In this document: positions 2-61,275 of the stretch, piece by piece
Numbering within the stretch: position 1 is the first letter of the stretch
Layout of the letters: each line of letters starts with the position of its first letter
Notes under the pieces: model-generated
Database searches by the model: none
What the model saw: the letters and a program-made list of their open reading frames with translations, nothing else
Told to the model about the DNA's origin: nothing
Position numbers and translations under genes: made by a program
Assembly (NCBI GenBank): GCA_019058445.1
Contig: JAHPZA010000006.1
Span: 128,001 to 192,000, forward strand
Direction: 5' to 3'
Source of the DNA: Promethearchaeota archaeon
GTDB taxonomy: Archaea; Asgardarchaeota; Lokiarchaeia; Sigyniarchaeales; SOKP01
DNA: 64,000 nt

Positions 2-331
2 TTAATTTCGTCTACTTTTGGTAAATTTGAAAGCTTAAAACCATTAGAATTTATGAAATTCGAGATGGGAACCTTAGACTCAAATTTATATGTGATATAT
101 CAGAAAATTATGGAATTATTAAATATGCAAAACCTATCTCCATTGGCACTATCCACTATAGTATTTGAATCCGATGTTTGCTTTGTTCTTGTTAAGGAGG
201 TTAGTGAGAGTGCTGTTATTATGGCAGTTACTAAAAATAAGAAAATGGATGTCTTCTCCAGTGTAATTAATGCGTTGACTGGAGATAGTTTTAACGATTT
301 AAAAGAATTTATGACTAAACCGCAATTCTAA
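2..331 (+). CDS. hypothetical protein, 5'-partial (possible roadblock/longin-like alpha/beta domain)
   Basis: Frame is open from the window edge to TAA at 329-331. Alternating beta-strand pattern (STIVFESDVCFVLVKEVSESAVIMAVTK) followed by a helix; fold call is weak. Confidence 0.5.
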   Translation, partial: LISSTFGKFESLKPLEFMKFEMGTLDSNLYVIYQKIMELLNMQNLSPLALSTIVFESDVCFVLVKEVSESAVIMAVTKNKKMDVFSSVINALTGDSFNDLKEFMTKPQF

Positions 332-423
332 ATAGCATTAAATGGAATATTGAACTTAGTTCTAAAAAATTTAAAAATAAAAAATAGAATTTAAGAAAAT
401 TTATTTTGCTTATACTTTTTCAA

Positions 424-1263
424 TTAGGCTTCTTTTTCATGTAATTTTCTTTTCGTTAGCAGGTGTTGTTTTGCGTGATGTGGTCTTCTTAAGACAGTAT
501 CATTAGATTTTTCGATCTCCCTTGCTTGATCACACATTTTGGCTGCAGTAGACATCATCTCGTGAGCAGCAGCTAGTAAAGGCATGTATTCTTCTCTTTC
601 TTTAAGTTGAAAACATGCTTTCCCTGTTACTTTAGACACTGAAGAAGCAAGCTCAAAAGCAGCTAACGCTTTCGCTTCCGCATATGGATTAGAAAATCCG
701 GCAGCTTTAACTGCTTTTGTAGCATCTACAATAATTTTTGGCAAGGAAGGAGCTTTCCCCTCCAACATATCCATTATAACTTTGTTTAATTCTTCAGCTA
801 TAACGCTAAGGGCTCCTGTTATGGCAAGTACTTTTAACAAATCAGAGTTAAACACACTCATTTCAATAGGATCTAAAAAAGGCCTTCTCGCACCAATCAT
901 AGAATCACAATTTACTAAAATGTATCCCATCCCTTTTTCAGTAATTTCCTCCACTGCTTTCTTGGCTGGTGCATCAGAGATAATAATAGTAGGAATACTT
1001 CCAGCCATATCTCTTGCAGCTTTTGGTCCTTTAAGAGCTGCATTAGGAGATGACATTAAAATCAATTCAGGTTCCCATTTTAATAAATCTTTCATCGTTT
1101 CCGTACACATCTCTGGAGGATGCATCTTTGCTCCAGAAGTCACCTCGTATACATTAATTCTCGTAGCTTCAGCTCTTTCATCCATTAAAAACGCAAGTAA
1201 TAGAGAAGACCCAATTGTTCCATTTTTCAAAATTCCGATTTTTAATACTTTTCCTTCGCTCAT
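424..1263 (-). CDS. mtd: F420-dependent methylene-tetrahydromethanopterin dehydrogenase
   Basis: 279 aa; KIGILKxGxIG, DERA, SGAKM, SPNAALKGP, DSMIGARRPFLDPxEM and LRRPH motifs of Mtd. Confidence 0.93.
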   Translation of the reverse strand: MSEGKVLKIGILKNGTIGSSLLLAFLMDERAEATRINVYEVTSGAKMHPPEMCTETMKDLLKWEPELILMSSPNAALKGPKAARDMAGSIPTIIISDAPAKKAVEEITEKGMGYILVNCDSMIGARRPFLDPIEMSVFNSDLLKVLAITGALSVIAEELNKVIMDMLEGKAPSLPKIIVDATKAVKAAGFSNPYAEAKALAAFELASSVSKVTGKACFQLKEREEYMPLLAAAHEMMSTAAKMCDQAREIEKSNDTVLRRPHHAKQHLLTKRKLHEKEA

Positions 1264-1420
1264 TTTTCATTACACTATTTTTAATTGATATTGAAGTTTT
1301 AAAATATAAATTTCTATTTCTTCTATTTAATTTTGCACTATTTTTATTTTTTTTTTAAAATTTTATATAAAATGAAATCTATTAAAAATAGTAATAATTG
1401 AAAATCTAAAAAAAAGTTGA

Positions 1421-2326
1421 ATGATGATGGAATTAAATGGAGTAGAAATTGAAGATACATATTGTGAAGCATTTGGAGGATTCTTTGCTCGAGTTTTAGT
1501 GACCGCTATCAATGAAAATTGGGCCAAAATTGCGGGTTTAATAGCCACGGGTTACGGAACTTCAACAATTCACTGTGATGCTGAAGCAGCAATCGATGTT
1601 ATGGTACCCGCTAACCAAACCCCTGATAATAGGCCAGGCGCTGCTTTAATGTTCTTCATTTCGGATAAAAAGAAAGTTGGCAACGTAGTAATGAACCGTT
1701 TAGGACAATGTGTTTTGACATGCCCCACGACCGCGTGTTTTGATGCTATGAAAGGATCACTGGATCCAGAAAAAATATTTGACATAAAGATCGGAGAAAA
1801 TTTAAGGTATTTCGGTGATGGTTTCGAAGAGAAGGATGGCAACATATGGAATATTCCAGTTATGGATGGGATTTTTAAATGCCAAGACATGATGAAAGTT
1901 GGTAAAGGTATTGCAGGAGGAAATTTCCTTATAATTGGAAAAGATCAAGCATCCACTTTAAAAGCTGCTGAAGCTTCAATAGATGCAATTAAGGATCTTG
2001 AAGATGCAATAGCCGCATTCCCAGGTGGTATTGCAAGATCTGGTTCAAAAGTAGGTTCTAAATATAGTTTCCTAGGTGCTTCAACAAACGACGCATACTG
2101 TCCAGCTTTGAGAGAAAAATCTGAGAATACAGCACTCAAAGAGGGGGATAACTGTGTATACGAAGTTATCTTAGATGGAGCCACTGAAGATGCATTAAAA
2201 ATGGCAATGAAATTAGGAGTTGAAGCTGCTGTTAAAGTTTCCGGCGTAAACCGGATTTCTGCAGGAAATTACGGAGGTAAGCTAGGAAAATTTCAATATC
2301 ACCTAAAAGATGTCTTAGGATTATAA
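1421..2326 (+). CDS. ftr: formylmethanofuran:tetrahydromethanopterin formyltransferase
   Basis: NGVEIEDTYCEAF, TPDxRPG, GQCVLTCPTTA, FPGGIARSGSKVGS and ISAGNYGGKLG motifs. Confidence 0.96.
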   Translation: MMMELNGVEIEDTYCEAFGGFFARVLVTAINENWAKIAGLIATGYGTSTIHCDAEAAIDVMVPANQTPDNRPGAALMFFISDKKKVGNVVMNRLGQCVLTCPTTACFDAMKGSLDPEKIFDIKIGENLRYFGDGFEEKDGNIWNIPVMDGIFKCQDMMKVGKGIAGGNFLIIGKDQASTLKAAEASIDAIKDLEDAIAAFPGGIARSGSKVGSKYSFLGASTNDAYCPALREKSENTALKEGDNCVYEVILDGATEDALKMAMKLGVEAAVKVSGVNRISAGNYGGKLGKFQYHLKDVLGL

Positions 2327-2367
2327 ATTCGAAATTCAAAAAAAAAATAAAACAATTTTTTTCTTTA

Positions 2368-4095
2368 TTATAATTTTCTTTTTATTTTTCGCTTAGGAGC
2401 AGGTTTTTTAGGTTCTTCTTTCTCAGATACCTTTTCAATTTCTTTTTCAACGCGTTTTGGCTTAGCTGGAGTTGGTTTTTCTTCAGTGGGTTTTTTTGCG
2501 GGTTTTTTCTCCTTCTTAATAGGTATTTTCTCTTCTAAGGGTTTATATTTTGCATATTTTGATTTACCTGTATGATAACCCACTCCAATACCGACAATTA
2601 TTCCTATGATCGAACCGACTACTAACGTAATCCATGGTAAGATGTCTGAAATTAAATCAGGAACAACTGTTATTTGTTGGGGACCAGTATCAAAATCATC
2701 ATCGAGATCGGTGGTTTCACCATCCGTATCAGTAACAGAGACGTAAACAGTCCAAGTTCCAGAGCTTAAATCTTCTGTTCTAATGGTTAATTCAGAACCA
2801 CCATCTTCATATGCTACAGAAGCTTCATATTCATCCTTTTCGTCAGCCATTGGATCTTCCAAAATAAGTTCCACAGTAATATAGGAAATTCCCTCAACAT
2901 CACTCACATCAAAATCGAATTCCAAATCATCACCATAAGGAACCGAAATTCTTTCATCAGTATCAATATCATTAATCTCGTATCCATCTATATCTGGAGC
3001 ATTATTTTTTATTAATACTCCAGTATTTTGAACAGTCACCCCTCCATTGCCATCATCAGCAGTAAACTCAACATTATAATTTCCTTTAGGTCGGCTTCCA
3101 TCTATCGTAAAGTTCCCTTCAAAGACATTACCTTGGCTATTAAATAATTCGGGATTATCAATCGTAACTGTTTGACCATTTGTATCAGTTATTTTCATAT
3201 TAACTCCCTGCATATCACTTTCCTTATCACTAGCATTTAATGTCACAACACAAAATTCTTCTCTAAAAACTGAGCTTGGGCTAAATTTAATATTACTAAT
3301 TACCGGATCCGAATTCTTGATAAAAAATCCAAAATAATCTGCATGCCAAGTAGTCCAAAAATCTTCTGTCAAATTTACTGCAACATAATAATAGCTATTA
3401 ACACGGTCAAAACTCTCATCTATAGTGAAGTTAATTTGAAAGGGATTTTTCGTAAATTCTTGAATTATATGTTGTTGAGATGCAGTAGTGGCATTTACAA
3501 CTAGGATCTCCCAATCATAGTTATCAGATTCGTCAATTGCAATATCAGCAACTACTTCCTCATCTCTATAATATTCACTACTATTAAATCCAACCATGCT
3601 AGTAGATCTTATTGTAAAATTTGTATAGGTTGTTTGAGTATTTAAAAGGTAATTTGTAGAATTACGGATTTCAAAGCTTACTCTTTGTAATCCTAATGGA
3701 GCATTTCCCCTTGGAGTGTATGTATATGTAAAATTTTTATTAGTTCCTGGGATATATGACATGTTAAAAAGCGAATCCGAGTTGTTAGTAAAGTATATCC
3801 TCATATAGGTCTTATTTGCAGCTAAAAATCCAGATACATTAACGGTTATATTAATTGATTGAAATCCCCGACGAATTATTGTAGTATTTCTAAATATTGA
3901 GGAATAATTTAGAGTATTTACTCCATTTGCGGATTTTAACTTATCTTTTCGATCTAAAAATTCACTATCTTGACCAACATATCTAAAATTGTCACTATCC
4001 TTATTATTCTCTGCTGAGAGCAGAGCAATACCCAGAAAAGTATTGAATACCAGTAAAAAAAAGAGCACAATGCAAAATGTTTTTTTTTTATTCAT
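2368..4095 (-). CDS. secreted, C-terminally membrane-anchored surface protein with Ig-like beta domains and Lys/Pro/Glu-rich tail
   Basis: N-terminal hydrophobic signal, many NxS/T sequons, repeated 'N..P.I' Ig-like modules, C-terminal TM helix followed by a basic low-complexity tail. Confidence 0.75.
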   Translation of the reverse strand: MNKKKTFCIVLFFLLVFNTFLGIALLSAENNKDSDNFRYVGQDSEFLDRKDKLKSANGVNTLNYSSIFRNTTIIRRGFQSINITVNVSGFLAANKTYMRIYFTNNSDSLFNMSYIPGTNKNFTYTYTPRGNAPLGLQRVSFEIRNSTNYLLNTQTTYTNFTIRSTSMVGFNSSEYYRDEEVVADIAIDESDNYDWEILVVNATTASQQHIIQEFTKNPFQINFTIDESFDRVNSYYYVAVNLTEDFWTTWHADYFGFFIKNSDPVISNIKFSPSSVFREEFCVVTLNASDKESDMQGVNMKITDTNGQTVTIDNPELFNSQGNVFEGNFTIDGSRPKGNYNVEFTADDGNGGVTVQNTGVLIKNNAPDIDGYEINDIDTDERISVPYGDDLEFDFDVSDVEGISYITVELILEDPMADEKDEYEASVAYEDGGSELTIRTEDLSSGTWTVYVSVTDTDGETTDLDDDFDTGPQQITVVPDLISDILPWITLVVGSIIGIIVGIGVGYHTGKSKYAKYKPLEEKIPIKKEKKPAKKPTEEKPTPAKPKRVEKEIEKVSEKEEPKKPAPKRKIKRKL

Positions 4096-25631: not shown

Positions 25632-27062
25632 GTGAAAGATATGATTAGATTTAGTGATAAGCAATTAAAAATCCCTAAATTAATGAGGCCGGTATATCTT
25701 GTTACAGCAGGTATGTCAAAATTTGATCGAGCATTTCCAGAAACTCGAACTGAAGAGCTTTGCATAGACGCTTTAACCGCAGCTTCTGATTTTGTAGGTA
25801 TGACACCAGCTGAATTAAAAAAGTACATTCATACATGCTATTATGGTCATTTCGCAGATCATTTTGGTGATCAATTGCTCGGTGAAGCTGTAATCCATGA
25901 TCGACTGGGTTTAGATCCTTTAGGGAATATAGGTGTAAAAACTGGAGGTGCTACAGGAGGTTCAGCTATGTGGGAGGCTGTAAAAGCCGTAGCTTCTGGA
26001 TATAGTGACTGTGCGCTCGCTCTTGGTTGGGAAAGGATGGATGAAGTACCCACTGATGAAGGCAACCATCTTATTTCTTGTGCCGCAGATAAAGATTGGG
26101 AAACTCCCTTAGGACACATTTATACAGGATATTACGCAGTTATGGCACAACGATACTGGAAAGTTTTTGGTAAAGAACAAGATTCTTTTAGGAAAACAAT
26201 GGCGGAAATTGCCGTAAAAAATCGTGGCTACGCTCGAATGAACCCTCATGCCCATGGGCCAATGAAAATTACTGTAGAGGATGTCACTAACTCCCCTATA
26301 GTGGCTTATCCTCTTCGGGTTTTAGACTGTTGTTTAATGAGTGTGGGATCCGCATGTGGTGTGGTGTGTGATGAAAAAACGGCATATGAAATTACGGATA
26401 AACCTCTAAGAATATATATTGCTGCGGGAAGTCATACGTTAAGAGTAGCAGATCGACGGGATATGACAATACCCCTTTTACCAAACGAAACTCCGGGGCA
26501 GTATGACGACATAGGAAAGAAATTTCCAGGTGGTGATCGATATCCTGGTTTTTCTAGCTTTTTGGCCGCACGTGTAGCCGCATATTACGCATATCACATG
26601 TCAGGTGTAGTCGATCCTTCTGAAGATCTCGATGTTGTGGAGTTACATGATGCGTTTACGATTAGTGATATCCAAACCTACGAGGATATCGGAATTCGCC
26701 CTTATGGAGAGGGAAGAGACTATATTGAGTCAGGAGATGCATATGTAATAAATCCACTTACGAAGAAACCTGGAAAACTACCAAGTAATCCATGTGGAGG
26801 ATTAATTGGTTGCATGCACGCCGTAGGGGCAACAGGACTTATGCAGATTGCTGAAATAGGGTATCATATTTGGAATCGATGGGATGAGATTCATGAGCCA
26901 GAAGAAAAATGGAAAGCCTTCGGACGAGAAAAACCAAAAGATTGGACGAGCCTTCAAGTAAAGGGAGCTAAACGCGGTTTGGCAATAAGTCATGCGGGGG
27001 TAGGTTCCCATGTAACTTGTACAATTTTAATGGATCCAAATAAATTAATAAAGGAGGATTAA
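25632..27062 (+). CDS. thiolase-fold protein lacking canonical nucleophilic Cys
   Basis: GGATGG at the C-x-S/G nucleophile position; VKNR, DCCLMS, VELHDAF and NPxGGLIGxxHAVGATG motifs. Confidence 0.88.
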   Translation: MKDMIRFSDKQLKIPKLMRPVYLVTAGMSKFDRAFPETRTEELCIDALTAASDFVGMTPAELKKYIHTCYYGHFADHFGDQLLGEAVIHDRLGLDPLGNIGVKTGGATGGSAMWEAVKAVASGYSDCALALGWERMDEVPTDEGNHLISCAADKDWETPLGHIYTGYYAVMAQRYWKVFGKEQDSFRKTMAEIAVKNRGYARMNPHAHGPMKITVEDVTNSPIVAYPLRVLDCCLMSVGSACGVVCDEKTAYEITDKPLRIYIAAGSHTLRVADRRDMTIPLLPNETPGQYDDIGKKFPGGDRYPGFSSFLAARVAAYYAYHMSGVVDPSEDLDVVELHDAFTISDIQTYEDIGIRPYGEGRDYIESGDAYVINPLTKKPGKLPSNPCGGLIGCMHAVGATGLMQIAEIGYHIWNRWDEIHEPEEKWKAFGREKPKDWTSLQVKGAKRGLAISHAGVGSHVTCTILMDPNKLIKED

Positions 27063-30113: not shown

Positions 30114-31253
30114 ATGAAAGTAGCAATTGTGGGAGTAGCCCAGACCAAATATGAGAGCAACAAAATCGATCAAACCTATATGGAGCTCACGTTTGAAGTT
30201 GTGAAGAAGCTTCACAATCAATTAGGAATAACAAACGATGACGTGGGTTCGGTAATCACTGGCTCTAACGATTTCACAGATGGTAGAACAATCGCTAATA
30301 TGGCAGTACAAGATGGTGTAGGATCCGTTCGCAAGTCGGAATCGAGAGTTTCGGGAGATGGAGCTTTTGCGTACGTTTACGCTGCTATGAGAGTTTTATC
30401 TCAGGAGTACGATACAGTTTTGGTAGTTTCGCATTCCAAGTGCTCCGAAGGGGATCAGTGCCTTATTAATAACTCAATTTTCGATCCCTTCTATCAGCGA
30501 CATTTGGGTTTGGACCAAATCTCTTCTGCTGGGTTGATGGCAAATATGTATATGAGTAAATATGGTATAACGGAAGAACAAGCGGCAAAGGTGGTAGTTA
30601 AAAACAGAAAAAATGCTTTTAACAATCCTTACGCTCATATACAGAAAGAGATAACTGTTGATGATGTTCTTAAATCGCCCATGTTAGCTTATCCATTAAA
30701 AGAATTAGATCTGCCTCCATATAGCGATGGTGCAGTAGCAATGCTCCTTGCTAATGAGGAAACCGCAAAAAAATTAACAGACACACCAGTATGGTTGAGG
30801 GGATACGCTAATTGTACTGACGCGTATTATCTAGGGAATAGAAACATGACGGATTTAATTGCATTAGAATTAGCAGCAAAGGAGGCCTACAAAATGGCGG
30901 GTATTAGCGATCCTATAAAAGATATAGATGTAGCTGAAGTGTCAGAAAATTTTAGTGCACACGAGCTTATGATTTACGAAGCCTTAGGTTTTTGCGGAAA
31001 GGGAGAAGGTGGAAAGTTTATTGATAGTGGAGAAACCCAAATGGGAGGAAAAATTCCCGTAAATCCTTCTGGAGGAGTATTATCAAGCAATGTGGCTATG
31101 GCAAATGGGTTAATTCGTGTAGCGGAGGTTGCTGAACAGTTAACGGGCAAAGCAGGAAAACGTCAAATACCTGATGCAAAAACAGGATTGGCATATGGGA
31201 TGAATGGAATATGTTCTCAAGGAAATTGCGTGTTAATTTTTGGAGGTGATTAA
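30114..31253 (+). CDS. thiolase-fold protein, Ltp4-like (no catalytic Cys)
   Basis: GSNDFTDGR and ESRVSGDGAFA resemble the Ltp4 'ESHVEMDAAW' region; VNPSGG. Confidence 0.85.
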   Translation: MKVAIVGVAQTKYESNKIDQTYMELTFEVVKKLHNQLGITNDDVGSVITGSNDFTDGRTIANMAVQDGVGSVRKSESRVSGDGAFAYVYAAMRVLSQEYDTVLVVSHSKCSEGDQCLINNSIFDPFYQRHLGLDQISSAGLMANMYMSKYGITEEQAAKVVVKNRKNAFNNPYAHIQKEITVDDVLKSPMLAYPLKELDLPPYSDGAVAMLLANEETAKKLTDTPVWLRGYANCTDAYYLGNRNMTDLIALELAAKEAYKMAGISDPIKDIDVAEVSENFSAHELMIYEALGFCGKGEGGKFIDSGETQMGGKIPVNPSGGVLSSNVAMANGLIRVAEVAEQLTGKAGKRQIPDAKTGLAYGMNGICSQGNCVLIFGGD

Positions 31254-31257
31254 AAAA

Positions 31258-32436
31258 ATGCCTAAACATGATGTAGCAATAGTAGGAATTGGTCAAACTA
31301 AATTTAGAAGTAAGAGAAGGGATGTCAATATCCCCGAAATGATTTATGAAGCTGTAAAAGCAGCTCTTGATGATGCAAATCTAGAAATCAAAGATATAGA
31401 CGCTCTATTAATTGGGAATATGGATCATTTTGAGGGAATAAACTTTAGCGAGCTGTGGACAGGTATCGATGCGTGCGGATTTTATCTCAAACCTGTGGTT
31501 AAAATAGCTACGGGAGGCACTACGGGTTCCTCATTAGGTATAAGTGGATATTATAACATTGCTTCAGGGATATATGATAAAGTATTGGTTGTAGGATGGG
31601 AAAAGCTTAATGAGGGTGGAGCAACAACAGGAATAATTACTGCTTTCGACCCAGTTTGGGAGCGACCATCTTTAGCAGGAGCTTTAGGTCCACTTGCGCT
31701 TATGGCGAACATATATGCATCAAAATACGGGATAGAGCGTTCAATGGAAGCTTCAGCTGATGTGGTTGTGAAAAATCGATCAAACGCTGCAAATAACGAA
31801 TTTGCTCATTTACAGATGCCTAATATTACGACTGATTTTGTAATGAGTTCACAGATGATTAGCTATCCATTACGCTTACACGATTGTTGCCCTCAAAGTG
31901 AAGGAGCTTGCGCAGTAATTTACGCAAACGAGAACGAAGCTAAGAAAATCACAGATAATCCTGCTTGGTTTAAAGGCGTTTCAACGGCACACTATTATAC
32001 CTTTGGATGCGATGATATTATGTATAATTTGCCTACGGCAACTATTGCTTCCAAGAAGATTTATAAAAAAGTAGGTATCAAGGATCCCATAAAAGATCTT
32101 GATGTTGCTGAAATTTACGAGCCTACTTCGTGGGCTGAGCTCGCTTGGACAGAGGCGTTGGGTTTTTGCGATTTTGGTAAGGGACATACCTTATTGGATG
32201 AAGGTATTAGTAAAATGGGTGGTGAAATGCCAGTAAATCCCTCAGGTGGCGTTTTAAGTACCAATCCAATTGGTGCGACTGCATTAGTTCGATTCGCAGA
32301 GGCAGCTATTCAAATTATGGGAAGAGGTGGAAAAAGGCAAGTCCCAGATGCTGAAGTTGCTATGGGTATGGGATTTGGTGGTAGTTTATGGACAGAATTA
32401 TGCATATTGGGCAAAGACCCAAAACCAGTGAGGTGA
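31258..32436 (+). CDS. thiolase-fold protein, Ltp3-like (no catalytic Cys)
   Basis: DHFEG, ATGGTTG, AEIYEPTSWAE and NPSGGVLSTNPIGATA; ATG 8 nt after GGAGGTGA. Confidence 0.85.
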   Translation: MPKHDVAIVGIGQTKFRSKRRDVNIPEMIYEAVKAALDDANLEIKDIDALLIGNMDHFEGINFSELWTGIDACGFYLKPVVKIATGGTTGSSLGISGYYNIASGIYDKVLVVGWEKLNEGGATTGIITAFDPVWERPSLAGALGPLALMANIYASKYGIERSMEASADVVVKNRSNAANNEFAHLQMPNITTDFVMSSQMISYPLRLHDCCPQSEGACAVIYANENEAKKITDNPAWFKGVSTAHYYTFGCDDIMYNLPTATIASKKIYKKVGIKDPIKDLDVAEIYEPTSWAELAWTEALGFCDFGKGHTLLDEGISKMGGEMPVNPSGGVLSTNPIGATALVRFAEAAIQIMGRGGKRQVPDAEVAMGMGFGGSLWTELCILGKDPKPVR

Positions 32437-36187: not shown

Positions 36188-38230
36188 TTATATACTATTA
36201 CCCATTTTATAACCTCGAGCAACAGCTTCCATTACCGTTTCTGGTTTACGAGCATCTCCGATTTTCTCTACTTTAATAGTACCTAGTTGCTTGATTTCTT
36301 TATAAAGAGCATCGTTCGGTTCGACCCCGGTAGCATAATAGATATAATCTATATCACTAATTGCGTTTTCTTTACCCGAAGAGTCTGAATAATTTACATA
36401 ATTTTCGCCGATTTCAGTGACTTTTACACTTGTAAGGAATTTCACACCTAAAGCATCGCATTTATCAAGAAGTACCCATTTCGTAGTCCTTCCTAACGCA
36501 GATCCTAATTTTGGTAACATTTCAAGAACGGTAACCTTATTCCTTCCCTTATGCATCATATCTAACGCAATTTGAGGCTCTAAGGCCTTATAGAATGTAA
36601 GAAAATCAAATGCTTCACGGCTTAATGTTCCATATTTTGCAATGTATATTGCTAATTCTATACCAGTGGCTCCGCCTCCTATAATAACATTGTTCTTACC
36701 AACTGGAGCATCACCGCTTAAAGCATCATTTGCCCAATATACATTTGCTCTGTCAATACCGGGAATAGGAGGTTTTATGGGATTTGAACCAGTGGCGACA
36801 AATGCAACGTCAGGATTGAATTCTTTTACTATATCAATAGTGACATTTTGTTGGAAATGTACATTGATGCCGTATTTCTGAATCCAATAGTTATAATTAT
36901 CTATCATACGTTTAAATTCGTTTCTTCCTGGTGGAATCCAGATTATGTTTAATAACCCGCCAATTTTATCATCCTTCTCAAAAATATGAACATCATGTCC
37001 TCTAATTGCCGCTATTCTCGCAGCCTCTAATCCTCCTGCTCCTGCTCCAATAATCATAACTTTTTTCTTTTCTTTCAATGGTTTCAGTTCAGTTCGGGCT
37101 TCATTTCCCGCTCGAGCATTCCTTAAACACGTGACAGGCATCATCCTGAATACCTGGTCAAAGCATCCTTGATTGCAGCCAATACAGTTCATTATATCTC
37201 TTAATTCACCCTTTTGAGCTTTCATTGGCAGATAAGGATCAGCAATTAACCCTCTTCCAATACAAATAGCATCAGCTTTTCCGGCCATTAAAACTTGTTC
37301 GGCGAGCTCAGGGTTGTTAATTCTATTGGAAGAAAATATAGGAATAGATACACGTTTATGAATATTTTCAGCTAGGTATGTATAACATCCTTCTGGAACA
37401 TCCATTGTTAATTGTGGTGTTTTTGTTTCATGCCAACCACCTGTTACGTTGAAATAATCTAAATATTTACCTAATTCTTCTGCAATAACTACTTTTTCCT
37501 TATATGTATTGCTGCCTGGAACAAAATCATCTCCAGAAATTCGATAGCCAAGAGGGATATCGTCTACTTTAGAACGCATTAATTCAATGGTTTCAATCGG
37601 GAATCTTAAACGATTTTCAAGATCGCCCCCATATTTATCAGTTCTCTTGTTAGTTTTTGGGGAACAAAACTGATCGGTTAAATAACCAGCATTTCCGCAA
37701 ATCTCTACTGCATCGAAGCCTGCTTTCTTAGCTCTAATTGTAGCGTCGGCAAAAGCCTCTTGTTCACGCTTTATATCTTCAAGACTCATTTCCTTAGGAG
37801 TGGTCTTACTAAAATTACTATAAACTGCAGAGGGGGCAATAGGTGTTCTGCCAATTATCTGTGGGAATGCGTTTAGGCCTCAATGGTAAATCCATTTCGA
37901 GGAAGCCCCGCCATGGTATAATTGGCAACAGATCTTTACATCATCTCGAGCATTGTGTACGGCTTCAGTTAATTTCTGTAAATCAGGAATAAATTTATCG
38001 TCATCAACTGCAATCATCGATGGTAAACCCTTTGCATAAACGTCTACATAACACCCTCCTACAATTAGCATTCCAGCACCTCCCTTAGCCCTTTCAACGT
38101 AAAAATCTATCAATTTGTCAGTGATAAACCCATTTTTTGCCAAGTTGAGATGCATCGCAGGCATTATAATACGATTAGACACATCCATATCCTTTATTTT
38201 AAAAGGAGTAAATAGTTTAAAGAACTTCAT
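36188..38230 (-). CDS. NADH:flavin oxidoreductase / 2,4-dienoyl-CoA reductase (FadH-like), 670 aa after removal of a 30-nt intron; join(complement(37903..38230),complement(36188..37872))
   Basis: OYE barrel (NRIIMPAMH, ERAKGG, AGFDAVE, NKRTDKYGG), CIGCNQGC and two Rossmann motifs. Both ORF-track fragments are in one frame, separated only by a TGA inside the BHB-flanked insert. Confidence 0.9.
37873..37902 (-). other. bulge-helix-bulge (tRNA-type) intron, 30 nt, in FadH-like gene
   Basis: mRNA: GCG GGGC UU^C CUC GA AAUGG AUUUA CCAUU GAG GCCU AA^A CGC. Complete outer helix, 4-bp central helix and two 3-nt bulges; the spliced sequence reads HGGAYAFP. Confidence 0.88.
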
Positions 38231-38460
38231 ATCTCATACTCATTAAAAAGTTTTTTTTAACTAGAAATAAAACGGGAATTTATTAAAATTAATTGAATTT
38301 AATTTAAAATGCTTCTCTATTTAGAAATTTAAGTTTAAAAAGTAATTTATGTGCTTTGAGAAAATAAATATAAAAAGTATAAAAAATGGAGAATAAGGAA
38401 TAATTTTTTATCATTGAGCAATTATAATAATAAAATATTATACTTATGGTTAGACTAAAA

Positions 38461-52218: not shown

Positions 52219-53463
52219 TCACCTCCATTTTCTCTGTGGTTCATCGGACATCACCACATGAGTTATTAAATTGATAGAACCGCCCCAACCATGTCCTAAA
52301 GCAGTGTGAACTGTTTTTGGTACTTGGTTGCCAGCTTTTCCCATAATTTGTAGAGCAGCTTCAGCTGGCCGTTCCATAGCAGAAGCTCCAATCGCATTTG
52401 TCGAATTGACGCCGCCAGAACAGTTCACAGGTAATTCTCCATTAAGCGCAGTAACTCCATTCCGATATGCTTCTGGAGCCTGATTTTCTTCAAAAAGCCC
52501 AATTCTTTCAACCCACATCAATTCTTGATTTGGGAATGGAGAATAAACTTCCGCATAATCAATTTCCTTATTGGGAAATGAAATACCTGCTTGTCCATAT
52601 GCCACCTCAGCTGATTTCATCGCTCCCAGTTGTTCGCACGGATCAGTTTGGCCTGCACCTGCACAATCTATCCCTATAATGGCCGATTCATTGCTGTAAC
52701 TCGCAACACCATTGATATAGACGGGAATGTCCGCTATTTGCTTCGCTTTTTCTTCAGTTGTAATTAACATCGCGCAAGCACCATCAGAGGCAGGACATAC
52801 CATTCCAAATCTCAGAGGAAAAGAGATATATGGTGTGTCGAGTACATCCTCTATGGTAATCGTAGGCATTTTTAAATGCGTCCACCAATTTTTTGCAGCA
52901 TTTCTTCTATTTTGGACAACAACGCGGGCTAGATCCTCTTCAGTTGCCCGACTACGCCTCATATAATTCATAGCTTGATAAGAAGCTACTCCAATTGCAG
53001 CTCCGGAACCCATATTTGATCTCATCCTCTCAATGGTATAGCCTAAATCAGAAAAAATAGAAAATTCTCCTAATGCTACAGATGCTAAACCTACTGTGGT
53101 ATCCCCACATGATTGCTGCTCGAAACCGATGCATAAAACCATGTCGTATAATCCTGAGGCTACACTGTAATAACCAGCTATTGTAACAGAACCTCCTGTA
53201 GTTCCGCCTGTGGTAACCCGGAGCAACGGTTTATTTTTAGAGGCCATGTGATCTCCCATCCATAATTCTGGCATATTCGCCCCTTCAAATGCGGGCATAT
53301 TACCATTGACAACCGCATCTATGTCCTTCCAATCGATATTTGCTTTTGTAATACAATCCTCAACCGCTTCATTGACCAATTCTGCCATGTTCACATCAGA
53401 ACGTTTAGATGCGTGTTCACAAAACCCACAGCTTATTATTGCTGGTTGTACTTTATGTGCCAT
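52219..53463 (-). CDS. thiolase-fold protein, Ltp3-like (no catalytic Cys)
   Basis: PAFEG, RVTTGGTTGG, AEVYSPF and SGGVNSTNAIGAS motifs. Confidence 0.85.
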   Translation of the reverse strand: MAHKVQPAIISCGFCEHASKRSDVNMAELVNEAVEDCITKANIDWKDIDAVVNGNMPAFEGANMPELWMGDHMASKNKPLLRVTTGGTTGGSVTIAGYYSVASGLYDMVLCIGFEQQSCGDTTVGLASVALGEFSIFSDLGYTIERMRSNMGSGAAIGVASYQAMNYMRRSRATEEDLARVVVQNRRNAAKNWWTHLKMPTITIEDVLDTPYISFPLRFGMVCPASDGACAMLITTEEKAKQIADIPVYINGVASYSNESAIIGIDCAGAGQTDPCEQLGAMKSAEVAYGQAGISFPNKEIDYAEVYSPFPNQELMWVERIGLFEENQAPEAYRNGVTALNGELPVNCSGGVNSTNAIGASAMERPAEAALQIMGKAGNQVPKTVHTALGHGWGGSINLITHVVMSDEPQRKWR

Positions 53464-53466
53464 TTT

Positions 53467-54600
53467 TTAACCACCTCCCTCCAATACAAATAATATACTA
53501 TTTTGAGCACAAAAACCCACCTGTCCAGAAGCAATTGCTTTCTTGGCACCGGAAACTTGATACTCATCTGCTTCCCCTCGAAGTTGCTTCGCAGCTTCTA
53601 CTATTCTTGTCAGTCCACAAGCACAAGGAGTAAATGCACTCATCGCCCCTCCAGAAGGATTTAATGCTGATCCTGAATCAAGCAACGTCGCTCCTTTTCC
53701 ATTTTCAGCCAATTTTGCTGCCTCTGCTAATATTAATTCTTCACACGATGTATGTCCAAAGAGTTCTGCTACATCAATTTCAGATTTAGGATCACTTATT
53801 CCAGCCATTTTATACGCTTTTTCGGCCGCTTTTTCCATTGAAACGCTTTTGCTTAAATCTCTATCACCTAAATAATAGGTCTCCTGACATTGTCCCATCC
53901 CGGTGATCCACACGGGGGTATCCGTAATTTTTAAACTTTGTCTCTCAGGAGCTAAAATCATCGCAGTTGCCCCATCACATGGGATAGGATACATCAATTC
54001 CCTTAAGGGACTGCTTAAAACCTCAGAATTTAACACATCTTGCACAGAGATATCCGATTTTTTCACATCTGGTAAAGCTAAAGGATTTTTCGCAGAATTC
54101 TTATAACCTTGTACTGCAACCTTCGCAATTTCTTCTTCGCTCACGCCAAATGCTTTCATATAAGCCCTCATTTGCATTCCTCCAGCAGTATATGAGTTTA
54201 TCAAACTTATGGTTCTATCAAAAGTAGGATCTAATTCCAAGATTCTCACTGGCTCATATAAATAGCATGATGGCATGCTAAATCCATATATCATCGCTAA
54301 TTTATGGTTACCTGATAATATTCTATACTGCCCGTAAGCTGCGGCATGCGCTCCATCCATTTCGACTTTAGTCTCGTCCTTCATATAAGCCCCCCCTGCT
54401 TCTACTTTAAAGCAGTTCGAAATAGTTTTTCCATCATAGTAATCGTTCGTGCACGTTACTACAGTGGTAATATCTTTTCTTTTTAAACCAGCAGAATCCA
54501 AGGCTCCCCTCACTGCAGAGTAAATGGCTTCATAGGGACTCATCATCATATCCAGTTCAGGTTTTAGTTGACAATACCCAACAATTCCTACTCGTTCCAT
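53467..54600 (-). CDS. thiolase-fold protein, Ltp4-like (no catalytic Cys)
   Basis: NDYYDGK, ETKVEMDGAHA and NPSGG motifs. Confidence 0.85.
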   Translation of the reverse strand: MERVGIVGYCQLKPELDMMMSPYEAIYSAVRGALDSAGLKRKDITTVVTCTNDYYDGKTISNCFKVEAGGAYMKDETKVEMDGAHAAAYGQYRILSGNHKLAMIYGFSMPSCYLYEPVRILELDPTFDRTISLINSYTAGGMQMRAYMKAFGVSEEEIAKVAVQGYKNSAKNPLALPDVKKSDISVQDVLNSEVLSSPLRELMYPIPCDGATAMILAPERQSLKITDTPVWITGMGQCQETYYLGDRDLSKSVSMEKAAEKAYKMAGISDPKSEIDVAELFGHTSCEELILAEAAKLAENGKGATLLDSGSALNPSGGAMSAFTPCACGLTRIVEAAKQLRGEADEYQVSGAKKAIASGQVGFCAQNSILFVLEGGG

Positions 54601-59076: not shown

Positions 59077-59445
59077 TTAAGTTTTAATAATGATTGTAAT
59101 TGCTCTCGTAAGACGGATAACGTCCATAACTTTTCCTTGCTCTACGATGATTTGTTCTCGACTTATTGCGTGGGTAAAATCTCCTTTTCCTTCACATATT
59201 CGTACGATAGCATTCGGATCTCCAGACATAACAATCTCTGCATTTGGGAGTGTTCCATCCACAATTTTTCCTTTCTTCTCCTTAATTTCTAAATAAAAGG
59301 GATCTTCATTCTCCAGATTAAATTGAAAAGTCATATCCCAGTTTACATCCTTGCCAGCAACGTTAGTAACAAATACCGTTTGTGCCTTAGGATTTCCATT
59401 TAAACCTTCAATAACTTTTGTTAAATTTTCTTTTGCAGCTCCCAT
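59077..59445 (-). CDS. SCP2 sterol/lipid-binding domain protein
   Basis: 122 aa; FQFNL....FYLEIK.......G....AEIVM..D.....I..G pattern; operonic with DUF35 and thiolase. Confidence 0.75.
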   Translation of the reverse strand: MGAAKENLTKVIEGLNGNPKAQTVFVTNVAGKDVNWDMTFQFNLENEDPFYLEIKEKKGKIVDGTLPNAEIVMSGDPNAIVRICEGKGDFTHAISREQIIVEQGKVMDVIRLTRAITIIIKT

Positions 59446-59447
59446 TT

Positions 59448-59951
59448 TTAAGCACCTCCCTCGTATTCTGGTTTAGCAATCCATCTTTCATACTCATCTT
59501 CAGGTACAAAAAAGAAATCCGTCATTTTACCTTCTCTGTTTTTGGAAAATACCGCTTTAACTCTTCGTCCTTTTTTAACTTTTGAGGGAACTAGATTTTC
59601 TGAAAATATTCCTTGAAATAAAGCAGTGTCAGCTCCATCTAATTTTATAAAACCTATAGAATAGGGTACCGATTTTATAAACGCAGAAGTTGTATACCAA
59701 ACGATAGTGCTAACCTCAATCGTTCCTGTTTGTTTCATTTCAATCCATTCGGTAGGCGAATAACATTCTGAGCAATTAATTCTTGGAGGCATCCATATTT
59801 TCCCGCAATTTGAATTAGTGCATTTAGTTCCTAACAACTTTTTATTGTTCATGACCTCAATAAAGAACTTAGATTGTCCTCCCATCGTGTATTTATAGTT
59901 AATTTTAATTATATCCCTTATTTCATGTGATTGAAAATCTTGCTTGCTCAT
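59448..59951 (-). CDS. DUF35 Zn-ribbon/OB-fold protein
   Basis: GTKC....C..PPRINCSEC and KLDGAD; ATGA overlap with the thiolase stop. Confidence 0.9.
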   Translation of the reverse strand: MSKQDFQSHEIRDIIKINYKYTMGGQSKFFIEVMNNKKLLGTKCTNSNCGKIWMPPRINCSECYSPTEWIEMKQTGTIEVSTIVWYTTSAFIKSVPYSIGFIKLDGADTALFQGIFSENLVPSKVKKGRRVKAVFSKNREGKMTDFFFVPEDEYERWIAKPEYEGGA

Positions 59952-61275
59952 GGTTGTTTCAATCCCTCCTCATTCGTCATTACAATAATCGCAGCATATG
60001 CTGCTCCAGGACCTCCAATTGAGTGCGCTATAGCCCTGCCTTTTTCAATTGTTACTTGGTGCTTACCAGCATCTTCTCGAAGTTGTAGTGCTGCTTCTCC
60101 TGTGCTCATAATCCCTGTAGCACCTACAGCGTGACCGCATCCAATCAATCCTCCTGATGGGCAACATGGTACTTCACCATTAATCCATGGCCCTTCTCCT
60201 GGTTTTTCAAAGCTATTTTCAATCCAAGGACCTCCTTCTCCAAAAGGAACAAATCCCAATTCTTCATACGATATAACCTCTTGCCCGCTAAATGCATCAT
60301 GCAGTTCTGCTAAGTCAACTTGTTGCTTTATTTTATTATAATCAAGTCCTGCCATTTTATAAGCTACTTTAGCTGCATTAATATTTGAATATAATCTTCC
60401 CATATCTTCTCTATTACCTATAAAACAGTCAGTATTCGCCGCACCTACACCCGTAATCCAAATTGGTTTTTCAATACCTAATTCCTTAACTTTTTCTTCT
60501 GGTGCTAGAATTAAGGCCGCTGATGCTTCTGAGTAAAGACAACAATCTAACATTTTAAAAGGATAACAAATAATCCTCGAATTCAAGACATCTTCAATTG
60601 TTAAATCCATCGGAGACTGCGCTTTAGGATTAAGCATTGCGTTTCCATGGTTTTTAACGCTAACAATAGCCAAAATTAACTAAACGTTAAAATTTTAAGC
60701 CATATGCTCTTCAGTTGGATTTCCAAATTCCTCAAAATGAGCATTAACCATAGAAACGTAAGAACTAGCTGCCATCATCCCCATAGGATACTCATAAGTC
60801 AAATCTGCTGAATATGCGATGGCATTGAGCACTTCTGGTGTTGTTGTACCTGTTTAAACTTATTAGGGATATCCTAATTGATTTGTTCATCGTAACAATC
60901 GTTACATTTTTCCAGACCAAGACATAGGCATAGGTCTGACAACCCAGAAGCAACTTCAGCATAAGCCATCCTTACAGTATAGCCGCCTGTAGCACCTCCT
61001 GAGGCAATCCGGGTACCTGGCTTATCATTCATCCCGATGTAACTATTAGTAAAAATATCCGGCATGAATTGCCGTTCAAACAGCTCGTTATAAATCCCAT
61101 ACACTGTTGATTCCAAGTCTTTGTGCGTAATTTGTGCTCCGTTCTTATTGGCATCGTCAAGCGCCAATTTTGTCGCGTCATAAGCCAGCTCAAAATAGGT
61201 CTTATCCAAATATCTTGCTCTAAAAGGTGTTATTCCTACACCTATTATCGCTACTTTTCTCACTTTATTTTTCAC
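59948..61275 (-). CDS. thiolase-fold protein (no canonical Cys), 422 aa after removal of two introns; join(complement(60883..61275),complement(60696..60853),complement(59948..60665))
   Basis: Exon 1 has KVAIIGVG, ASGGATGG and EK. The hidden middle exon reads TGTTTPEVLNAIAYSADLTYEYPMGMMAASSYVSMVNAHFEEFGNPTEEHMA. Exon 3 has VSVKNH, ELHDAF and GHAVGATG. Confidence 0.88.
60666..60695 (-). other. BHB-type intron, 30 nt (thiolase intron 2)
   Basis: mRNA: AU GGCU UA^A AAUUUUAAC GUUUA GUUAAUUUU GGCU AU^U GU. The unspliced frame has UAA (spanning the 5' junction) and UAG; the spliced sequence reads EHMAYVSVKNH. Confidence 0.75.
60854..60882 (-). other. BHB/BHL-type intron, 29 nt (thiolase intron 1)
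   Basis: mRNA: GAAC AA^A UCA AUUAGG AUAUC CCUAAU AA GUUU AA^A CAGG. Removal fixes both a stop and a frameshift; the spliced sequence reads DCYDEQTGTTTPEV. Confidence 0.8.

Follow-up and report, generated by a model that had tools for sequence, protein, structure and literature searches.

Two putative bulge-helix-bulge mini-introns in a thiolase gene of a Promethearchaeota archaeon

Does a thiolase gene whose reading frame is broken into three open pieces still encode an enzyme, and if so, by which route? This question is raised by a locus in a 64-kb window, i.e., the whole stretch of DNA analysed here (positions 128001-192000 of contig C6 in genome G000), from a Promethearchaeota archaeon whose genome assembly comprises 4.6 Mb in 10 contigs, is 92.6% complete and has a G+C content of about 33%. 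The thiolase gene in question lies on the minus strand and carries, at window positions 60666-60695, an insert of 30 nucleotides (nt) that interrupts its frame. As outlined in the following, this insert is very likely an intron of the bulge-helix-bulge (BHB) type in the coding sequence of a functional thiolase gene, the second of two, and the comparison with relatives indicates that it would be removed from the mRNA.

In mRNA sense, the minus strand reads GAG CAU AUG GCU UA up to the insert and U GUU AGC GUU AAA AAC CAU behind it, and two stop codons of the thiolase frame, UAA at 60697-60695 and UAG at 60682-60680, stand just 5' of VSVKNH (see the table for the sequences and coordinates of all elements). 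The original prediction for this locus had placed a 30-nt in-frame insert with both stops ahead of VKNH and had described its fold as a GGCU/GGCU central helix with UAA and AUU bulges, a nine-position stem with two U-U mismatches and a weak outer helix; all of these elements are indeed present, as is the TGGCT direct repeat that it had noted (UGGCU on both sides of the insert in the transcript). The pairs of the central helix are G.U, G-C, C-G and U.G. In the inner stem of the window copy, seven pairs are accompanied by two U.U mismatches, both of which are U-A pairs in several relatives, and its outer helix h consists only of U.G and A-U, followed by mismatches. GGCU/GGCU together with UAA and AUU provides the 4-base-pair (bp) helix and the two 3-nt bulges that make up the core of a BHB. 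Given the weak helix h, the motif is the relaxed BHB form and not the strict hBHBh'.

Compared with its intron-less orthologues, the window gene holds exactly two extra stretches, of 29 nt (60854-60882) and 30 nt (60666-60695). Taking out both by the BHB rule leaves 1269 nt with an open reading frame (ORF) of 422 amino acids (aa), equal in length to the intron-less orthologues, and the arrangement of two introns and three exons that had been predicted is hereby confirmed for the 29-nt intron as well. An orthologue was found in 17 of 40 related genomes, with 85-91% amino-acid identity over exon 3, and most orthologues, at 85-94% amino-acid identity, lack both inserts and consist of one continuous gene of 1269 nt; the public genomes in which they occur are nearly all labelled Promethearchaeota or Promethearchaeia, i.e., Lokiarchaeia-type Asgard archaea. 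The end of exon 1 was placed by the BHB register and the intron-less orthologues (DEQ|TG). Intron 1 would fold with a central helix GAAC/GUUU, bulges AAA/AAA and a 6-bp hairpin AUUAGG/CCUAAU that is offset by a small internal loop; it is lacking in most orthologues and has homologous copies in L016 and L065, the latter with a perfect 9-bp inner stem. In a tree of the spliced proteins, the window gene belongs to a well-supported trio (L024,(window,L016)), of which L024 bears the second insert only and L016 the first insert only. Neither window intron has a second copy in the 4.6-Mb genome, even with up to four substitutions allowed.

The residue at the second junction allows the BHB model to be set against a simple removal of the DNA between the direct repeats, since the original prediction expected Tyr from the former and Ile from the latter. 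For the cbf5 intron, cDNA has verified that each bulge is cut after its second residue, ahead of the third (Yokobori 2009, PMC2738675). Applied to the window gene, this rule joins GCU UA to U GUU and thus yields Tyr in MAYV. The closest orthologue without the second insert, L016, which is of the same genus and the sister in the tree, reads ATG GCA TAC GTG, i.e., MAYV as well, and the corresponding residue in 52 intron-less orthologues is Leu (27), Tyr (20), Met (2), His (2) or Phe (1), and never Ile. In the seven carriers analysed, the BHB rule gives Tyr five times and Leu twice; removal by the direct repeat would give I, I, N, I, K, N and N, with a broken frame in both 29-nt copies. The residues found in the intron-less orthologues therefore favour the BHB model, and Tyr was rightly expected.

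Further support comes from copies of intron 2 collected from metagenome-assembled genomes (MAGs) and metagenomes, including eight additional thiolase genes from a pattern scan of metagenome contigs. The covariation alignment comprises 12 distinct copies at the same codon of orthologous genes. Here, the central helix is paired in 100% of the cells (12/12 copies) and the inner stem in 90%, and four inner-stem pairs have changed on both sides (A-U to C-G, U-A to C-G and U-A to A-U in either direction, as well as UU/AA to AA/UU in L042). When the 3' partners were slid by 1-3 columns as a control, pairing fell to 28-42%. In the outer helix, U.G and A-U are the only pairs that never vary, and pairing reaches 61% across six positions. 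Judged from this alignment, the intron 2 motif is more than a product of chance. In six of the 12 distinct copies (L058, L066, L108, L179, L181 and L121) the intron has 29 nt, and translation through the insert is therefore impossible.

Such inserts are a recurrent feature of this thiolase family: 16 of 62 non-redundant orthologues carry one to three of them, with lengths of 29-35 nt, at no fewer than seven positions (at least seven) and from about a dozen unrelated sequence families. In 24 of 28 insert instances, the register that restores the frame is precisely where a perfect 4-bp helix with its two 3-nt bulges occurs, the other four showing 3/4 pairs; in the controls, a perfect helix was seen in 8 of 672 wrong registers and in 2.2% of random pseudo-introns placed in intron-less genes. 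Spliced by the BHB rule, 15 of the 16 carriers yield ORFs of 400-422 aa, L024 being a partial gene of 1230 nt; the exception is L081, for which the register of the third intron was set by hand (site-G junction, central helix with 3/4 pairs) and the spliced ORF was not recomputed. Ratios of nonsynonymous to synonymous substitution rates (dN/dS) between intron-bearing genes and relatives are 0.02-0.05, with a synonymous divergence (dS) >1. The gene is under strong purifying selection, and the carriers are not pseudogenes. As a side observation, the contig of L043 (DATKTP010000175.1) has two tandem thiolase copies, one with and one without the site-G intron. This contig and a few others bearing orthologues carry bacterial or Thermoplasmata MAG labels, probably as a result of mis-binning.

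How might the introns be removed? In a local fold of the pre-mRNA, the exonic and the intronic GGCU would form the 4-bp central helix, flanked by the bulges UAA and AUU, the intronic hairpin and a short exon-exon helix. The tRNA-splicing endonuclease EndA, whose role we infer here, would cut after the second nucleotide of each bulge, and RtcB, presumed to act likewise, would ligate the exons to AUG GCU UAU GUU AGC, encoding MAYVSVKNH in an enzyme of 422 aa. RtcB is encoded in G000, and the genome has one EndA homologue (L001, G000:C9:770313-770918, 202 aa), which, as judged by eye in a comparison with L190 of G006, is without the catalytic Tyr/His/Lys. A search of G000 with the catalytic EndA paralogue of a genus relative returned the known paralogue only; a weak second EndA-like match (L186, E = 0.05) proved to be a methyltransferase-like ORF and was discarded. 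Among the same-genus relatives searched, 7/8 have at least two EndA matches and G002 has a single one. A two-subunit EndA was reported for Asgard archaea (PMC5829648; Asgard tRNA-intron preprint), which fits the at least two matches in relatives, and we take the missing catalytic EndA to be an assembly gap. ARAGORN recognised only 23 tRNA genes in the 4.6 Mb of G000, 19 of them with intron calls, which suggests that most tRNA genes are too interrupted for recognition, and this result is in keeping with the extensive interruption of tRNA genes that has been described for some Asgard lineages. A tRNA scan of the window gave no match.

Several observations weigh against splicing of a functional gene. 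A catalytic-type EndA paralogue was not found in the 92.6%-complete G000 assembly. Moreover, the window copy is a somewhat degraded form of the motif, with its two U.U mismatches, its two outer pairs and a fold z-score against shuffles of a modest -1.9, compared with -2.6 for L065 and -3.4 for L042. The protein database offered no longer match and no protein of >92% identity, hence no near-identical spliced product. Under coupled transcription and translation, unspliced mRNA would give a truncated product. Finally, genome-wide scans for the motif combined with ORFs showed no excess over shifted-register decoys (500 vs 483-523 and 361 vs 330-354; with an inner stem of at least seven pairs 68 vs 60-72; for ORF pairs with a single stop 20 vs 19), and such introns are therefore few per genome. 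Motif scanning alone cannot count them.

Other explanations have to be weighed against the same data. In a translational bypass, the peptidyl-tRNA-Ala would detach from GCU, pass over the hairpin and re-pair with the second GCU, after which translation would continue at AUU and give MAIV. The known examples, T4 gene 60 and the mitochondrial 'byps', are short non-coding inserts in ORFs, with a stop after the take-off codon and a hairpin, and the window copy resembles them in its matched GCU...GCU, the stop behind the take-off codon and the hairpin in the gap; such a mechanism would also tolerate gap lengths that are not divisible by three. However, the landing codon is GUU and not GCU in L042 and L145, matching 3-nt codons at both ends occur in only 1/28 family inserts (27/28 fail), and bypassing would insert I, N or K where the 52 intron-less orthologues have Y/L/F/M/H. 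What all inserts have in common, and what is conserved unlike in the known bypass elements, is complementarity, i.e., a 4-bp helix with two 3-nt bulges, and not repetition, so that we consider bypassing very improbable. Hardly any credence, and somewhat less still, is given to the view that a DNA insertion, with TGGCT as its target-site duplication, inactivated the gene and left a pseudogene. In-frame stops and a flanking TGGCT repeat are compatible with such an event, and the 15 other thiolase paralogues of the genome could compensate for a loss of the gene, but dN/dS values of 0.026-0.046 against the nearest relatives (dS >1), with intact exons in all carriers, argue against decay, and so does the conservation of the insert in 12 diverged genes with structure-preserving substitutions. 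The insert is single-copy in the genome, thus no repeat element, and similar inserts occur in an aEF-2-family gene that was found in 31/31 genomes searched. The idea that the TGGCT repeat may record how the intron was gained was not supported either: the two copies are the strands of the central helix, which arises since GGCU can form wobble pairs with itself; the repeat is degenerate in the carrier L042 (GGCU/GGUU), and other family introns have no flanking repeat. A target-site duplication is hence rejected.

Slightly less remote than either of these, yet very unlikely as well, is an excision at the RNA level by a different endonuclease or by self-cleavage, with a BHB-like shape that would be a coincidence. 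The catalytic EndA paralogue that was not found in the G000 assembly would be in line with this option. The geometry of the inserts, with a 4-bp helix, 3-nt bulges on opposite strands and a predicted cut after the second bulge nucleotide, is, however, the exact EndA ruler and recurs in unrelated insert sequences, 30 nt cannot accommodate a group I or group II ribozyme, whose core takes hundreds of nucleotides, an Rfam scan of the window gave no match, and the presence of at least two EndA paralogues in nearly all same-genus relatives searched speaks for the usual enzyme. Virtually no chance remains that the stop codons are read through or recoded and the insert is translated as a loop of 10 residues; the window insert does have 30 nt and is in frame, but ribosomes would have to read through both UAA and UAG, the orthologous copies of 29 nt and the other family inserts of 29, 31, 32, 34 and 35 nt do not keep the frame length, and the substitutions preserve base pairs and not codons.

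The closest counterpart of the proposed BHB splicing is the pre-mRNA intron of cbf5 in Crenarchaeota (Watanabe 2002; Yokobori 2009, PMC2738675), which lies in a protein gene, is marked by a BHB-like motif where exon and intron meet, is cut between the second and third bulge residues as proposed for the thiolase gene, is distributed in a patchy manner among relatives, implying gain and loss, and occurs in a lineage described to have a hetero-oligomeric EndA. In contrast to cbf5, the thiolase introns belong to another phylum (Promethearchaeota/Asgard) and to other genes, are present twice in one coding sequence and up to three times in orthologues, are very short and uniform (29-35 nt) with many alternative positions per family, and were deduced by comparison, whereas the cbf5 intron was established by cDNA. 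According to a paper from 2020, the intron of cbf5 and one in a haloarchaeal 5' untranslated region (UTR) are the only BHB introns reported from archaeal mRNAs (PMC7714728), and the literature searched describes BHB introns in coding sequences only for crenarchaeal cbf5 (PMC7714728; PMC6379350). In G000, cbf5 is uninterrupted. The literature searched contained no report of BHB introns in Asgard protein-coding genes and none of an archaeal coding sequence with several introns. For HVO_1309 of Haloferax volcanii (PMC7714728), the splicing endonuclease acts on an mRNA at a BHB motif as well, but this 5'-UTR intron lies in an untranslated leader of a euryarchaeon and not in a coding sequence. The introns of Asgard tRNA genes, as described in a preprint that does not treat mRNAs or protein-coding genes, share the motif, presumably the use of EndA and RtcB, and repeated lineage-specific gains at motif-capable sites; the thiolase introns differ in that the substrate is an mRNA, in which the encoded protein limits how the exonic part of the motif can vary and the reading frame has to be re-established on excision.

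A non-spliceosomal removal of a very short mRNA intron is also familiar from HAC1/XBP1, where Ire1 cuts and an RtcB-type ligase joins the exons. This system differs from BHB introns in that Ire1 recognises stem-loops and serves a regulatory stress pathway. RtcB and XBP-1 are mentioned in a passage of PMC8718801. Taken together, the sequence comparisons strongly support a known mechanism, EndA-type BHB splicing of mRNA, in a new lineage and in new genes. The unusual aspect is the combination of several very short introns per gene with a rapid turnover of their positions.

Apart from the thiolase gene, a test for gene pairs spanned by paralogues and the follow-up of single candidates led to four other G000 genes with BHB-type introns of 30 nt, three of which (Sir2, aEF-2-family and Oxidored_FMN) are supported by homology. 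The Sir2-family gene is adjoined by an intact paralogue (3642..2863), and the Pfam SIR2 profile runs across the junction (58-105 | 108-180). The aEF-2-family GTPase, for which the best NCBIfam match is aEF-2, under the equivalog cut-off, and whose Pfam domain resumes across the junction, is uninterrupted in most of the genomes in which it occurs; four genomes (G000 and three others) have four 30-nt introns at differing positions, all with perfect central helices. The intron of G006 is homologous to that of G000 and lies 6 nt downstream on a repeated (A/U)CAGAU exon motif, an offset that looks like intron sliding. In the Oxidored_FMN gene, the intron at 37873-37902, a third BHB-type intron of the window, has an in-frame UGA and a central helix GGGC/GCCU, and the orthologues in G003, G002 and G008 are without exactly these 30 nt and read HGGA-Y-..PQ, as predicted by BHB splicing. 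The flavin-reductase-like gene is a candidate by its motif, and its exon 1 gave no Pfam match. Independently of these genes, paralogue alignments span 34 G000 gene pairs joined by a single in-frame stop (15 TGA, 14 TAA and 5 TAG), and ARAGORN listed candidate tRNA-SeC and tRNA-Pyl genes in G000. These single stops could reflect recoding by selenocysteine or pyrrolysine, decayed repeat genes or more in-frame introns.

Features of the thiolase locus and further genes with putative BHB introns (window positions unless a contig is given; cuts and introns are predicted)
Feature	Position	Strand	Description
Thiolase gene	61275..59948	-	broken into three open pieces of 133, 45 and 241 aa
Exon 1 (Thiolase_N)	60883..61275	-	ends ...GAU GAA CAA; ORF and Pfam
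Intron 1	60854..60882	-	29 nt, AUCAAUUAGGAUAUCCCUAAUAAGUUUAA; frame-shifting
Exon 2	60696..60853	-	encodes ...TGTTTPEVLNAIAYSADLTYEYPMGMMAASSYVSMVNAHFEEFGNPTEEHMA plus UA, the first two bases of the Tyr codon
Intron 2	60666..60695	-	30 nt, AAAUUUUAACGUUUAGUUAAUUUUGGCUAU; in frame; UAA (shared with the exon bulge) and UAG
Exon 3 (Thiolase_C_1)	59948..60665	-	starts (U)GUU AGC GUU AAA AAC CAU = (Y)VSVKNH; ORF and Pfam
Central helix, 5' strand	60698..60701	-	GGCU, exonic; pairs with 60668-60671
5' bulge	60695..60697	-	UAA; predicted cut 60696/60695; register restores the orthologous frame
Inner hairpin h'	60672..60694	-	AAUUUUAAC (60694-60686) / loop GUUUA / GUUAAUUUU (60680-60672)
Central helix, 3' strand	60668..60671	-	GGCU, intronic; GGUU in L042 and L145 with pairing kept
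3' bulge	60665..60667	-	AUU; predicted cut 60666/60665; U at 60665 completes UA|U = Tyr
Thiolase stop codon	59948-59950	-	
DUF35/OB-fold gene (OB_ChsH2_C)	59448..59951	-	downstream; overlaps the thiolase stop codon; ORF and Pfam
SCP2-domain gene	59077..59445	-	downstream, same orientation; ORF and Pfam
Oxidored_FMN + Pyr_redox_2 gene (enoate/dienoyl-CoA reductase-like)	36191-38233; intron 37873-37902	-	30 nt, CCUCGAAAUGGAUUUACCAUUGAGGCCUAA
Sir2-family gene (L187)	G000:C9, exons 2730..2386 + 2361..1930	-	30 nt; AUGG/CCAU, AAA/AAA, 8-bp inner stem; near-ideal BHB
aEF-2-family GTPase (L188/L192)	G000:C10, L188 exon 1 2529..2317, exon 2 2316..247	-	30-nt in-frame intron with UAG
Flavin-reductase-like gene (L189)	G000:C10, 412..567 + 574..945	+	30-nt insert; UGGA/UCCA, AAA/AAA, 9-bp inner stem; motif alone

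The genes behind the thiolase stop codon include one for a DUF35/OB-fold protein, the usual partner of archaeal thiolases. Five more thiolase paralogues are found within the window (at about 26199-26864, 30588-32388 and 52243-54123), and genome-wide G000 has 16 thiolase matches.

If the introns are spliced as proposed, the window gene would be an archaeal coding sequence with several introns, and mRNA splicing by the tRNA machinery would occur in the lineage nearest to eukaryotes. Automated gene calling breaks such genes up or shortens them, e.g., a cluster of 241-aa 'acetyl-CoA C-acetyltransferase' proteins corresponds to exon 3 only, and Asgard gene inventories and pseudogene counts would therefore need correction. 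Furthermore, the thiolase family would offer a natural series of presence, absence and position variants for studying gain, loss and movement of BHB introns, and one would have to ask how such splicing is kept in step with coupled translation. On a broader level, it is probable that Promethearchaeota carry a dynamic population of 29-35-nt BHB mini-introns in protein genes, with up to three per gene and many alternative positions within one family, which are gained, precisely lost and, as it seems, moved along by a few nucleotides (3-6 nt) from one close relative to another, and which occur also in a conserved translation GTPase, that of the aEF-2 family. Routine pre-mRNA splicing by the tRNA-splicing machinery, together with the need to keep ribosomes off unspliced mRNA, would then probably exist already in the closest prokaryotic relatives of eukaryotes.

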